From Thermoplasmata archaeon (lineage in GTDB: Archaea; Thermoplasmatota; Thermoplasmata; Lutacidiplasmatales; UBA184), in NCBI GenBank assembly GCA_049584655.1, contig JBAUYF010000007.1, positions 27,288 to 91,287 on the forward strand: a DNA stretch of 64,000 nt, in the 5' to 3' direction. Positions 2,047 to 22,775 of the stretch are shown one piece after another (the first letter of the stretch is position 1; every line of letters begins with the position of its first letter). The position numbers were made by a program, and so were the translations under genes. The notes beneath the pieces are model-generated. The model was not told where the DNA came from. It did no database searches and saw only the letters and a list, made by a program, of their open reading frames with translations.

Positions 2047-3429
2047 CTACCACCGAGCTCCCGGACTATCGCGACCGGAACTAACTCGGTCGTAGGACTC
2101 CACCGCACGAGCGAAGATCTCGCGTAGGCGCGGGGCCGCACGTTTGACGTGGCAGATGCGGGCCGTATGGTAGCCGGCCTCTCCCATACGTCGGGCGCGC
2201 TCCGGCTGGCTGAGGAGCGTCGCCATGCTCGTCACGAGCGCGCGTACGGAGCCCGGTCGCACGGCGTATCCGTTGAAGTCGTCATTGACGAGTTCCGCCA
2301 CCCCGGCCCCTTGGCTGACGACGACCGGGAGTCGATGCATCCATGCCTCAATGACCACGAGACCGAATCCTTCCCACGGGGCCGGATGGACGAAGAGACT
2401 TGCCCCCTCGTAGGCCGCCCGGAGGTCCTCATTCGAAACGTTCCCCGTGAGGATCACCGATTTCTCGAGCTTGAGATCTCGAATCTGCACGCGCAAGCGT
2501 TGCAGCCAGGCGTCTGACTTCGTCGGCTCGTTGATCTTCGATGCTTGCCGCGAGGAGAAACTCTCCCCCCCTACGAGTACCAAGCGATGGTCCGGAAATC
2601 GATCCCGAAGTTGGGCGAAGGCGGCGATGACCAAGTCGTGGCGTTTCACGGGATCCATGCGGCCGACGCATAGCGTGTACGGAGCGTGCCCGACCCCGCT
2701 CCGTGCTCGAAACTCCGCGATCGCCCGGTCGGAAGCGGGGCGATTCTCGTTCGGATCAATATACGGATAGACTTGGAACGCTCGTCCATGGAATCCGTGC
2801 CGGATCAATTCCTCGAGGCCCGCGCGGGTGCTCACGACGATGGCGTCAAATCCCTCCATCGACCGAAGGAAGAATCGACGCACGGGCTCCGGATAACCCC
2901 GAAATTCGAGGGGAATGTGCCAACGCATGAGCGCGGGTGAGGCCGACCCGATCATGCCGCCGACGAGGATCTGCTGAAAGTCGTTCACATAGAACAGGTC
3001 GTAGTCGTTCATGTGATGGAGCAAGTGCTGCGCGGTACGGTGGTTGTACTCCACGAAAGCCTGGTACTCTTCGGGGCGGAACGGTTCGAGTCCCCGGGGA
3101 CCATGAAAGGAACGCCAGACGGCTTCCTTGAACGAATTGTAGCGCTCGCGGAGATCGGCTTCGAGCGGAACGGTTTCAACGGTGTATCCTTCGTCGATCG
3201 TGAACTCCGTCGGAAGGTCCGGCCCTTGCTGCACGACCCACCGAGGATTGGGTGCAATCCAGTGGCCTAAGCCAGTCCGCAATAAGGATCGCATCATTGG
3301 AACCACCCCGCCCACGTTCGGAATGTAGTCGCGCCCGACCTTCCAGGGCCCCCGACGTGGCGGCGAGCGCCCACCGATTGGTTGGATCGGCGGCGTTTGC
3401 GAACTGATACAAATTCTGAGCATTCTCAC
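2047..3429 (-). CDS. GT-B glycosyltransferase (GT4-like, sucrose/trehalose-synthase-like architecture)
   Basis: C-terminal EGFGLVVIEAWMHRLPVVVS (E-x7-E GT4 motif) and LVLVGG block. N-half FYVNDFQQ...WHIPLEF resembles retaining sugar-phosphate/trehalose synthases. Substrate unknown. Confidence 0.7.
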   Translation of the reverse strand: MRMLRICISSQTPPIQPIGGRSPPRRGPWKVGRDYIPNVGGVVPMMRSLLRTGLGHWIAPNPRWVVQQGPDLPTEFTIDEGYTVETVPLEADLRERYNSFKEAVWRSFHGPRGLEPFRPEEYQAFVEYNHRTAQHLLHHMNDYDLFYVNDFQQILVGGMIGSASPALMRWHIPLEFRGYPEPVRRFFLRSMEGFDAIVVSTRAGLEELIRHGFHGRAFQVYPYIDPNENRPASDRAIAEFRARSGVGHAPYTLCVGRMDPVKRHDLVIAAFAQLRDRFPDHRLVLVGGESFSSRQASKINEPTKSDAWLQRLRVQIRDLKLEKSVILTGNVSNEDLRAAYEGASLFVHPAPWEGFGLVVIEAWMHRLPVVVSQGAGVAELVNDDFNGYAVRPGSVRALVTSMATLLSQPERARRMGEAGYHTARICHVKRAAPRLREIFARAVESYDRVSSGRDSPGARW

Positions 3430-5816: not shown

Positions 5817-6740
5817 ATGTTCAATGTGGAAGTAGTCGTCGCGCTCGCGATTCTCGCCGGGCTAATGGCCGGCGGGAACTCCTACATCTTTGTACAGTTC
5901 TTCCCCCGTCGGGGGGGGACCCCCAATTTGGGCCGGGCGATCCTCGTAGCGGGGCTGCTCGGTTCGTCCCTTTGCGTCTGGCTTGCGGTGATGTGGGCCG
6001 TCGTGGTACCCAGCTTCGGAGCTTGGCTCGCGGTCTTCCTCGGTATGAATTCCATGATGGTGGCGGTTGGCGTCTGGTTCGTCGCCATCTTCCTTCGCGC
6101 AGAAGAAAGGATGGTGCCTTCCGGGAGCTGGGGTTGGGCGGCAACGTTGTCCCTCTTGGTGATCGGGAATGAACTATTCATGGGAACATCGTTCGTCGGA
6201 GCCGTGGGAGGTCCCGGCGCTCTCTTGGCGGGATCCACTCCGACCCTGATCTCGGGATTCACGGCGTCCGTCAACTCGTTGTGGTTCTTCTGGGCGATGC
6301 TCGCAAATCTGACCTGGCTCGTCCTCTGGCTCCCCCTCGCTCGGAACGAAAAGGAGGCGTTGCTTGGTCTGAGCTCCGTAACGATCGTAGGCCCCTGGGT
6401 GCTTTGGAGCCCGTTCTGGGGACCGCTGGCCCTCCTCCTAGTGGTAGTGATGGTGGCCCTTCTCGTACTTCGATCGTACCGCGCCACGACCCAACCCACT
6501 GTCCGCTACTCCAGGATCGTGACTGGGTCGATTGCGGGGCTGGTGACCGTCGCGGGGGGCGCGACCATTGCCGGGCTGACTGCTGATTCTCCATTCGGAT
6601 CCCTCGCGTGGGCATCGGCTGCCTTCTTCGTTCTCTTCTTCCAACTCCTGTTCTTGTCTCAGTCGGCGTTGAAGCATACGACGCCGGCCGCGGCCAGCAC
6701 CTCCCTACCACTCACGGCACCTAGCGCCGCCTCCGAGTGA
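5817..6740 (+). CDS. hypothetical polytopic membrane protein
   Basis: 307 aa with 8 or more hydrophobic helices and a Trp-rich sequence. No recognisable family. Confidence 0.6.
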   Translation: MFNVEVVVALAILAGLMAGGNSYIFVQFFPRRGGTPNLGRAILVAGLLGSSLCVWLAVMWAVVVPSFGAWLAVFLGMNSMMVAVGVWFVAIFLRAEERMVPSGSWGWAATLSLLVIGNELFMGTSFVGAVGGPGALLAGSTPTLISGFTASVNSLWFFWAMLANLTWLVLWLPLARNEKEALLGLSSVTIVGPWVLWSPFWGPLALLLVVVMVALLVLRSYRATTQPTVRYSRIVTGSIAGLVTVAGGATIAGLTADSPFGSLAWASAAFFVLFFQLLFLSQSALKHTTPAAASTSLPLTAPSAASE

Positions 6741-20021: not shown

Positions 20022-20738
20022 TCACGATTTTGACGGCGAACTCCGACGAAGACCATCCAGGTCGTGCTTCAACAGATCGAGCTCATGGACCGCCACATCG
20101 CTTTCACCTTCCGAAGCGAGCGGAGTGAGGGGAATGGCCGCCCGGGCCGGAGGGGGAGGAGGCGGCGGAGGAGGCAAGAACGAAGTCGCCGGGCCGGCCA
20201 CGGATGCCGCCTTCACGGAGACCCCCCGTACGCCCCCCGGGTCCAACCTTCGAGACTTCGAAGAAATCACCGCCGGAGTACGGGGAGGGGGTGACGGAAG
20301 TGTCCGTAGGGATCCCGCGGAGGTCGATTTTCTTGGCGGGGCCGTTGGAGTTTCCTCCGGTTCATCCTCCTCGGCGAAATAGGAAATGACTCCGCCAACA
20401 CCGGCCACGATTCCGAGCACCAAGAACAAGATCCACAGATGGAAACCGCCGGCACCCACCGTCGGCTCGAGCGACCAGGTGAGAAGGGCTCCGACCAGCA
20501 GGATCCAGGATGGGAAGAGCAGCGGGAAGCAGCCCCCGATGCGGCGGAAGAAATCATTCGGGGCGCGCCGTTCTGCTGGATCCGGTCGACCATGTACATC
20601 GGGAAGGGGCCGACCGGTAACGCGGGGGGCGGGCGGGTCCGGGGAGGACGCAGGCGTCAGGGCGTCTTCGTCCCAATCGGGGGCATACATGCTGTGGGGA
20701 GCCATCGGCGCAATCTGGAATAATTCGAGGAGGGCCAA
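20022..20738 (-). CDS. proline-rich membrane protein (hypothetical)
   Basis: 238 aa with two central TM helices flanked by Pro-rich disordered arms. Includes nine consecutive Pro codons at 20148-20174. Confidence 0.5.
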   Translation of the reverse strand: MALLELFQIAPMAPHSMYAPDWDEDALTPASSPDPPAPRVTGRPLPDVHGRPDPAERRAPNDFFRRIGGCFPLLFPSWILLVGALLTWSLEPTVGAGGFHLWILFLVLGIVAGVGGVISYFAEEDEPEETPTAPPRKSTSAGSLRTLPSPPPRTPAVISSKSRRLDPGGVRGVSVKAASVAGPATSFLPPPPPPPPPARAAIPLTPLASEGESDVAVHELDLLKHDLDGLRRSSPSKS

Positions 20739-21122: not shown

Positions 21123-21488
21123 CTACCGCTTCGCGACGAGAAACAAGATCCCGCTGATCAAGAGGCAGAGGGAGGCCAGGATCGCAAGAACGCCGGACGC
21201 AAAACCTAACGCGAGCCATCCGACGACCGCCATTACCACGAGGATGATCCCGGCCGCCAAACTCTCGTCGCCCCATCGTGACCTTCCGAGAATCGCAAAA
21301 AATCCGGCGATAAGCCCGACGACAATGAAAACGATCGACTGATCCAGGGACGAGAACGACGCCCCCGCTCGATGAGTCGCGAGGAAAAAGGCGCCCTTGA
21401 AGAAGTCAAAGATGCCGTCTAAGACCAGTAAGGCAGCCCCCAGCAAGCCAAACAGCAATCCAAGCGGGCGGTCCGAGCGGTACGTCAC
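21123..21488 (-). CDS. hypothetical four-TM membrane protein
   Basis: 121 aa with four hydrophobic helices. Confidence 0.55.
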   Translation of the reverse strand: MTYRSDRPLGLLFGLLGAALLVLDGIFDFFKGAFFLATHRAGASFSSLDQSIVFIVVGLIAGFFAILGRSRWGDESLAAGIILVVMAVVGWLALGFASGVLAILASLCLLISGILFLVAKR

Positions 21489-21765
21489 AGTCCCTCCTCA
21501 GCTACCGCGTGCGCCTCCGGCTCGGGAGGATATAAACCGTTCACGCTCGGCCCCGACGGCATGTCGCATTCTAGCTCTCCGAATGACATTCGATCCGAGC
21601 GAGTTAGTGTCTAGCCCCGGAGCAAGGAAGCCTCCCCTTGCCCAAATCGGGAATCTCGACGAACAGTCGCGCCCGAATACGCAACTGTCGTGGCCCATCC
21701 GTCGTAGGAAAGGTCGGAAATCCGAGGGCAAGGTTTTTCATCTCGGCCCGGACTCCAAACGCCGC

Positions 21766-21872
21766 GGCCGGGATGGGGTAGCTTGGCCTATCCTGGGGGA
21801 CTGTGGATCCCTCGACCCGGGTTCAAAGAGAGGCGGGAACCACCCCACCTCTGGGAACTCTCGGTCCCGGCC
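21766..21872 (+). tRNA. tRNA-His (GUG) with a 31-nt insertion (putative intron) in the T-loop
   Basis: G-1 (21766) faces C73 (21872), the tRNA-His hallmark. Acceptor stem GCCGGGA pairs with UCCCGGC. The D-arm has A14, G18G19 and A21. Anticodon stem GGGGA/UCCCU carries loop CUGUGGA, giving anticodon GUG. T-stem CCGGG pairs with CUCGG, and UUCAAA...U is interrupted by 21828-21858. The tRNA ends exactly 1 nt before the stop codon of the convergent HAD gene. No encoded CCA. Confidence 0.75.
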
Positions 21873-22775
21873 CTACCGCCGCCGCCCCGGCTTCTTCGCG
21901 CCCCTGCGGGACGATTTCTTACGGTTCGACGCCTTCGATGGACCGCGCTCAAGTTCGGCGAGTTTTTCGGGGAGCGCCGACAACGAGTAGTCCGCCCACG
22001 CGGCTCCCCAGCTTCGAAGATCTTCGGGGGTTAGTCCCCAACCGTGAAGCGACGATGCGCGCCCGATGGGAGTGACCCCTTCCACCGAAGCGGCAGCTTC
22101 CATATCGAATCGGGAGTCCCCGATCAAAAAGATCCGTGCGCCCGGATACCGCCGTCGGTACTCCTGGAGATGTTCCCGCTTCGTGCCTTGCGCCGAGCCC
22201 AAGACATCCTCGAACCAGAATCGCAATCCCTCGCGTTCGAGCAGCAAATCCGCCATCTCGGTTTCCGCTCCCGTCGAGATCACGAGGGTCCAGTGTTCTT
22301 GTGAGAGCCGTTTCAATAGCTTGGGCACCTCGGGGAACGGGCCCGCATGGGCATACGCTTCCGTTACCTTGCGGCCGTGGAACGTCCGGGCTGTGGCGGC
22401 TCGGAGCGTTGCCGGGGCATTTCCGTAGAGCTGGGACAGTTGAGCTTCGAATGGCATGCCGGTCGTGGCGAGGTAGTGAATGCGACCCTCTTCGATCGGA
22501 GTTCCAAAGGCGGTATGCATGACATCCGCGGCCACATGGCTGATGAGGGAGATATCGTCGAGAATCGTGCCATCCATGTCGAAGACGACGACTCCGCGTT
22601 CAACGTGAGTAGGAACAACTTCGCGCGGGAGGGTCGGGAGCCGGGAGATTTCGGAGAACTGGGAGGCGGCAGAGGAGACGATCGGGAGTTCGAGGCCTTC
22701 CAAGGGAGCGTCCGGAGGAGCGGGTTCCGGAGGTGGTGACGAGGAGTGAGAGGGCTTGCGGGCGCGCGGCTTCAT
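21873..22775 (-). CDS. HAD-superfamily hydrolase (phosphatase-like) with basic C-terminal tail
   Basis: HAD motif I VVFDMDGTILDD, motif II VISTG and motif IV IGDSRFDMEAA. Pro-rich N-extension and tail NRKKSSRRGAKKPGRRR. True start uncertain. Confidence 0.8.
   Translation of the reverse strand: MKPRARKPSHSSSPPPEPAPPDAPLEGLELPIVSSAASQFSEISRLPTLPREVVPTHVERGVVVFDMDGTILDDISLISHVAADVMHTAFGTPIEEGRIHYLATTGMPFEAQLSQLYGNAPATLRAATARTFHGRKVTEAYAHAGPFPEVPKLLKRLSQEHWTLVISTGAETEMADLLLEREGLRFWFEDVLGSAQGTKREHLQEYRRRYPGARIFLIGDSRFDMEAAASVEGVTPIGRASSLHGWGLTPEDLRSWGAAWADYSLSALPEKLAELERGPSKASNRKKSSRRGAKKPGRRR

Follow-up and report, generated by a model that had tools for sequence, protein, structure and literature searches.

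The window analysed here, by which we mean the whole 64-kb stretch of DNA, very probably carries on its forward strand a real tRNA-His(GUG) gene (21766-21872) that is interrupted at tRNA position 59/60, inside the T loop, by an intron of the BHB type. The interrupted gene goes far beyond what chance could produce: namely, an insertion of 28-32 nt is found at the same place of the T loop in at least 38 species-representative genomes, among the matches listed, and the intron-bearing allele is found in at least 120 metagenome contigs. The features to which the text refers are the following, all coordinates being those of the window.

21766-21872, forward strand: interrupted tRNA-His(GUG) gene, read from the sequence and called by ARAGORN in its intron-deleted form
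21766-21827, forward strand: 5' exon, from G-1 through T-loop positions 54-59, with a variable region of 4 nt
21828-21858, forward strand: putative intron of 31 nt at tRNA position 59/60; its deletion restores the tRNA, and relatives carry 28-32 nt at this place
21859-21872, forward strand: 3' exon (T60, T-stem strand CTCGG, acceptor strand TCCCGGC, discriminator C73), invariant in relatives
21822-21825, forward strand: 5' strand of the central BHB helix (T54, T55, C56, A57), pairing with 21853-21856
21826-21828, forward strand: 5' bulge (A58, A59, intron base 1), following the BHB geometry of PMC4090602, with a predicted cut at 21827/21828
21829-21852, forward strand: intron hairpin h' (AGAGG-C-GGG, loop AACCAC, CCC-A-CCTCT), from covariation and RNAalifold
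21853-21856, forward strand: 3' strand of the central BHB helix (intron bases -6 to -3, GGGA)
21857-21859, forward strand: 3' bulge (intron A and C, exon T60), with a predicted cut at 21858/21859
21728-21739, forward strand: promoter-like element GCAAGGTTTTTC, resembling an archaeal BRE/TATA element, 27-38 nt upstream of G-1
21873-22775, reverse strand: convergent gene for a HAD-family hydrolase (Pfam HAD_2/Hydrolase), a syntenic neighbour outside the tRNA

An earlier note on this DNA had drawn a complete tRNA-His(GUG) cloverleaf across the locus, and all of its arms could be located. In particular, the acceptor stem is GCCGGGA/TCCCGGC (7 bp), the D arm is GGGT/TCCT around a loop AGCTTGGCCTA with A14, G18G19 and A21, G26 is present, the anticodon arm reads GGGGA-CTGTGGA-TCCCT with the GTG anticodon at 21803-21805, the variable region is CGAC (4 nt), and the T stem is CCGGG/CTCGG, with 5 bp including one G·U. 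The histidine identity element that had been claimed, G-1 opposite C73, is borne out by the bases at 21766 and 21872 and by a G:C pair in 37 of 37 relatives. The encoded 3' exon lacks CCA, the genome reading CTA after C73. The T loop TTCAAA/T is split by the 31 nt GAGAGGCGGGAACCACCCCACCTCTGGGAAC at 21828-21858, just as had been described, and the interruption is common to the relatives. When 31 nt are deleted at offsets from -5 to +3 around 21828, ARAGORN calls tRNA-His(gtg) each time; offset 0 yields the loop TTCAAAT and offsets -1 to -3 yield TTCAACT, which reproduces the two loops foreseen in the earlier note, UUCAAAU for an exact cut and UUCAACU for one placed 1-3 nt earlier.

The native gene, on the other hand, goes unrecognized. 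ARAGORN, which the earlier note had proposed as a check and which finds tRNA-His(gtg) on the deleted form, calls no tRNA anywhere in the native 64-kb window, and its intron options (-i, -i0,100 and -ps) return nothing on the native sequence. A very relaxed threshold gave only calls of tRNA-Ala and tRNA-Tyr whose introns exceeded 100 nt; we set these aside as spurious. Rfam has no match to the native locus at the gathering score, and none at E<=10 in the local 451 bases; as a control, an intronless relative, L006, reaches 54.4 bits with its tRNA model, which matches none of three intron-bearing relative loci. The reason is likely the location of the interruption, since an intron in the T loop rather than in the anticodon loop is not modelled by standard tRNA finders. 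Long open reading frames cross the tRNA gene on the forward strand (21397-21990, 21783-22034 and 21803-22075), and on one Logan contig (L002, 2757-3164) a 135-aa 'gene' has been called over the tRNA locus. These are probably spurious calls, made across the locus because no tRNA is recognized there. A custom scan for introns of the same type in other tRNAs, covering 1.67 Mb made up of the window and related loci, returned tRNA-His genes and four spurious matches only.

The relatives come from a scan in which each GTDB species was represented by a single genome; the search pattern, which extended from the anticodon loop to C56, matched at least 120 loci. Intron-bearing species loci comprise 37 full-length distinct sequences and one more (L080) that is cut at its 5' end. 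When the 37 are aligned, the mean column identity is 91%, and almost all of the variation lies inside the insertion; the exons, including the columns of the 5' exon, are invariant or nearly so. What is more, compensatory double changes occur at 9 of the 10 pairs of the intron hairpin, a degree of covariation that none of 500 shuffles equalled and that slid-partner controls fell far below. Without guidance, RNAalifold predicts the T stem and the intron hairpin, and it does not predict the 4-bp central helix. The AGAGG/CCUCU helix that had been seen within the insertion is thereby supported both by compensatory changes in relatives and by the consensus fold. The top of the same hairpin, CGGGG...CCCCG (21834-21837 and 21844-21847; A1 columns 69-73 and 79-83), is nearly invariant in sequence across the clade, which could reflect GC-rich stability alone or an extra constraint on the intron RNA.

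How, then, would such an intron be recognized? The BHB motif consists of a 4-bp helix between two 3-nt bulges, and in canonical pre-tRNAs the first two anticodon bases sit inside its helix (PMC4090602), so that the helix takes up loop bases 32-35, and the 5' bulge is made of 36, 37 and intron base i1. The T arm of the window can be drawn in the same manner. Its outer helix h is the T stem (49-53/61-65, 5 bp), the central helix consists of T-A, T·G and C-G followed by an A57·G mismatch, both 3-nt bulges are present, and the inner helix h' is AGAGG/CCTCT plus GGG/CCC, so that h and h' both have at least 2 bp; the first base of the intron hairpin is i2, and on the 3' strand nothing separates the hairpin from the central helix. 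If each bulge is cut behind its second base, as the motif implies, the product has the T loop TTCAAAT on a 5-bp T stem. Consequently, the BHB register places the predicted junction at 59/60 and gives UUCAAAU as the mature loop, which is the first of the two junctions offered in the earlier note. In structural terms, 59/60 is to the T loop what 37/38 is to the anticodon loop, since both lie between the sixth and seventh bases of a 7-nt loop on a 5-bp stem.

The window is only one instance of this arrangement. Throughout 130 distinct introns from genomes and metagenomes, U54, U55 and C56 pair with intron bases -3, -4 and -5 without exception (130/130). A57 is paired in 87 of them, the fourth central pair being missing in the other 43, window included. 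A strict hBHBh' motif is formed by 65 introns; 41 are of the window type, with the A57 mismatch and a contiguous h', and 22 combine a 4-bp central helix with a mismatched first pair of h'. The earlier note had been unable to fit a helix-bulge-helix-bulge-helix motif by eye, and had named the lack of any BHB-like motif as grounds for giving up the intron. Such a motif can be fitted, slightly relaxed in the window by the A57·G mismatch and strict in half of the introns.

Thermodynamic folding taken alone was set aside, as it did not recover the 4-bp central helix, and comparative evidence was used instead; indeed, it is the comparative evidence that carries the BHB argument, because nearest-neighbour models penalise bulges. 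For the window, the single-sequence minimum free energy (MFE) structure favours a slipped GGGUUC/GAACUC helix, and the BHB conformer lies 4.5 kcal/mol above the MFE of the T arm. Among those relatives whose hairpin the MAFFT alignment keeps in register, the BHB conformer lies 0.3-7.7 kcal/mol above the MFE. A BHB motif in the slipped register, with a GUUC/GAAC central helix, was worked through by hand and rejected, for its cuts leave the T arm 2 nt short.

These same observations bear on a reading in which the intron is real and the A57·G variants require either an endonuclease of broadened specificity or a cut in a shifted register that yields UUCAACU. The fourth central pair is indeed absent in 43 of the 130 variants, the window among them, the MFE structure of the window does use the slipped helix, and narrow EndAs have been reported to need a canonical BHB (PMC4033280, PMC5829648). 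That said, cuts in the slipped register would remove 2 nt too many from the tRNA, and no variant has lost any of the three invariant central pairs or either 3-nt bulge. Moreover, some close syntenic relatives have the fourth pair and others, scattered among them, do not, which suggests that one enzyme probably handles both types. We therefore regard a broadened enzyme or a shifted cut as improbable, and take efficient cleavage of the A57·G variant by EndA as an assumption of the preferred reading, a BHB intron excised at 59/60.

One could also imagine that the 31 nt are never removed, and that the mature tRNA-His keeps an extra hairpin arm growing out of its T loop. In favour of such an arm, the upper hairpin CGGGG...CCCCG is rather conserved in sequence. 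Against it stand the conserved geometry of a 3-nt bulge, a 4-bp helix (its fourth pair present in 87 of 130) and a second 3-nt bulge, all in register with a 7-nt loop after excision, and an insert that ranges from 28 to 32 nt and whose hairpin loop is free to vary. Contacts between the T loop and the D loop, G18-U55 and G19-C56, are implied by the conserved G18G19 and UUC. With U54-A57 paired to the insert, these contacts could not form. For these reasons, we give retention of the arm a very slim chance, and continue with the BHB intron.

The distribution of the gene among other organisms speaks to its age. By record title, nearly all intron bearers are 'Thermoplasmata archaeon', with one Methanomassiliicoccales and one 'bacterium', and the loci with an uninterrupted T loop, among the matches listed, are titled Thermoplasmatales, Methanomicrobiales, Methanococcales and some DPANN groups. 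The same sequence as in the window is present in the metagenome-assembled genome (MAG) GCA_049280115.1, whose contig JBAPPM010000037.1 encodes an identical HAD protein, as do two Logan contigs. Four loci of more distant genomes, namely L068 and L080 (both Methanomassiliicoccales-like) and L108 and L123 (both with AT-rich flanks), likewise have an intron of 28-32 nt at 59/60 of tRNA-His, and they are without the HAD/CoaBC synteny described below and differ in their promoter regions. The existence of such distant carriers means that the intron either predates the syntenic clade or was acquired on separate occasions. Taken together, the sequences indicate that the T-loop intron is old and fixed in the clade.

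Could the locus instead be a tRNA-His pseudogene, inactivated by the 31-nt insertion, with a separate intact gene doing the work? The native sequence is, after all, missed by both ARAGORN and Rfam, and our view is confined to 64 kb of the genome, so that a second gene could lie elsewhere. Decay, however, would be expected in the exons, and no relaxation of exon constraint is seen: in the 37 distinct species-level sequences it is the exons that are invariant or nearly so, and the insertion that diverges, with compensatory changes. The promoter-like box is conserved as well. The earlier note had called for a search for an uninterrupted tRNA-His. Of 241 million metagenome records, 0 match the exact allele without the intron, against at least 120 for the interrupted one, and among the matches listed no assembly has both an interrupted and an uninterrupted tRNA-His match. 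On this evidence, a pseudogene is hardly tenable, and the functional, intron-bearing gene remains our reading. A self-splicing group I or group II intron was rejected outright, given that 31 nt stand against a catalytic core of a hundred nt or more and that Rfam gives no match at E<=10 either.

The surroundings of the gene are informative in their own right. A box matching the promoter-like element, with a consensus of about GCAAACCTTTTC and a resemblance to AAACCTTTTC, is conserved at a constant distance of ~26-38 nt upstream of G-1 in most intron-bearing relatives. This is the place expected of an archaeal BRE/TATA element, and we infer that the box is likely the promoter of the tRNA-His gene. 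At the other end, the earlier note had the gene ending 1 nt before the stop codon of the convergent HAD gene; in fact, the HAD stop TAG (CTA on the forward strand, 21873-21875) directly abuts C73 at 21872 with zero spacer. At 110 of 148 loci the arrangement is the same: a convergent open reading frame, 150 codons or longer, has its TAG at offset 0 from C73. The lack of a spacer makes antisense overlap of the tRNA 3' trailer with the 3' end of the HAD mRNA unavoidable. Downstream of the tRNA in the window, both the HAD hydrolase and a CoaBC-type flavoprotein are encoded. The interrupted tRNA has a HAD homologue beside it in 34 species loci, at a protein identity of 53-91%, and CoaBC in 25, at 59-83%, and synteny at such identities suggests that the arrangement has been inherited vertically over deep divergence. 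Encoded divergently upstream is a 121-aa protein with no Pfam match, homologues of which stand beside 12 relatives. More generally, the window has 62% G+C and encodes topoisomerase VI subunit B and a Nuo-type complex, among other genes, which mark it as archaeal DNA; we take its host to be an uncultured, GC-rich member of the Thermoplasmata. A further reading frame on the reverse strand (20022-20738, 238 aa) has no Pfam match, a ten-proline run and predicted hydrophobic stretches.

The pathway that we propose for this gene is as follows. Transcription would start from the conserved BRE/TATA-like box ~30 nt upstream, and the T arm of the precursor would fold like an intron-bearing anticodon arm, a fold for which the comparative data argue. 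Namely, the T stem would continue into a helix of U54-A57 with intron bases -6 to -3, flanked by the bulges A58 A59 i1 and i-2 i-1 U60, with the remainder of the intron folded into a GC-rich hairpin. EndA would then cut after the second bulge base on either side (21827/21828 and 21858/21859), and an RtcB-type ligase would join the exons into a mature T loop UUCAAAU, the predicted spliced junction being GGGTTCAAA/TCTCGG, i.e. GGGTTCAAA/TCTCGGTCCCGGCC(CCA). The encoded G-1 would be retained by RNase P, and CCA would be added post-transcriptionally, as it is not encoded. As for the enzyme, the EndA of Thermoplasma acidophilum is of the alpha'2 type with 'narrow' specificity (PMC6379350). Narrow EndAs recognise a strict BHB at any location, for example in rRNA precursors (PMC5829648, PMC6379350), and consequently a strict BHB in the T loop makes a plausible substrate; as already mentioned, these enzymes are reported to require canonical BHB motifs (PMC4033280, PMC5829648).

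The closest comparison is with the canonical intron at 37/38. Both have a 5-bp stem, the first four bases of the loop set against the 3' end of the intron in a central helix (in the window the fourth, A57, is mismatched), 3-nt bulges that hold the splice sites, an intron hairpin and a junction between the sixth and seventh bases of a 7-nt loop, and for both EndA and an RtcB-type ligase are expected; the present intron differs in residing in the T loop, at 59/60. Non-canonical positions are known in other archaea, and the unusual position claimed in the earlier note is indeed among them: 59/60 is listed as a non-canonical site, and such sites have been documented mainly in Crenarchaeota and Nanoarchaeota (PMC4090602). 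Non-canonical BHB introns have been described in Crenarchaeota, Thaumarchaeota, Nanoarchaeota and Korarchaeota (Marck & Grosjean 2003 and Sugahara 2008, as relayed in PMC4090602), and there, too, excision depends on the BHB motif and not on its position. Those lineages, however, have (alpha-beta)2 or loop-bearing endonucleases of broad specificity, many introns, and often relaxed hBH or HBh' motifs, whereas the present intron has a Thermoplasmata host and a strict or nearly strict motif, and is single and vertically conserved across a deep clade.

For Euryarchaeota, reviews describe a single intron at the canonical position only, name Korarchaeum as the sole archaeon that combines an alpha2 enzyme with non-canonical introns, and tie non-canonical introns to broad-specificity endonucleases (PMC4090602, PMC4033280). 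Mentioned as euryarchaeal exceptions are M. kandleri and M. thermautotrophicus (PMC4033280). The D-loop intron of the Methanopyrus kandleri pre-tRNA-Glu (PMC5829648) is likewise euryarchaeal and outside the anticodon loop, but it has a relaxed HBh' motif, accompanies a canonical intron and is cut poorly by an (alpha-beta)2 EndA; the present one stands alone in its tRNA, lies in the T loop and has a BHB that is strict or nearly so. The introns of nucleomorphs and of Cyanidioschyzon merolae (PMC4090602) also lie in the T arm of tRNA genes, but they are eukaryotic, often only 3-24 nt long and handled by different splicing machinery. A literature search, with most subscription journals outside it, found no report of a T-loop intron in Thermoplasmata, in Methanomassiliicoccales or in tRNA-His. 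The 59/60 site is already known, and what sets the present intron apart is the Thermoplasmata host, the depth of conservation and the invisibility to ARAGORN and Rfam.

A different insertion in tRNA-His was observed along the way. Three loci, L009 (~2960-3060, forward strand), L025 (reverse strand) and L067 (~6500-6600, forward strand), have a normal T loop and an insertion of ~28 nt in the D loop; the carriers are AT-richer Thermoplasmata or Thermoplasmatota MAGs, and two close relatives (L082 and L115) are without it. Its layout is GTAG, a 3-nt bulge, a hairpin with a 5-bp stem, CTAC and a bulge AAT, and the three hairpin stems (TCCGT/ACGGA, TCTCG/CGAGA and TTCGA/TCGAA, respectively) are compensatory among the loci. 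The native genes escape ARAGORN, which calls tRNA-His once the insertion is deleted. The sequences suggest that tRNA-His has acquired another non-canonical BHB intron, independent of the first, within the class Thermoplasmata.

What does the T-loop intron mean for these organisms and for those who annotate them? Since ARAGORN and Rfam miss the gene, as tested on the window and on three relatives, tRNA-His may be recorded as lacking in a clade whose members abound in peat and soil metagenomes, and a missed tRNA-His would distort tRNA counts and genome-quality calls. From the viewpoint of splicing, the intron sits at a non-canonical position, its BHB is strict or nearly so, and it has stayed fixed in Thermoplasmata across a deep divergence. 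The case agrees with the idea that position is immaterial provided the motif is strict. A T arm is able to mimic an intron-bearing anticodon arm exactly. What is more, natural variants that have or lack the fourth central pair are a ready series for studying EndA specificity.

A bolder proposal, which we consider doubtful and offer as speculation, is that the T-loop intron is no tolerated passenger, and is a selectively maintained feature of an order-level Thermoplasmata clade whose EndA is presumed to be of the narrow alpha'2 type. If this were true, the intron could hide the 3' half of tRNA-His from integration, control modification of the T loop, or yield a stable, GC-rich circular RNA. The relaxed central helix found in about one third of the lineages, including the window, may then require a broadening of EndA that has gone unrecognised. 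Finally, together with the D-loop intron of other Thermoplasmata, it would overturn the textbook rule that euryarchaeal tRNA introns occur at 37/38 only.
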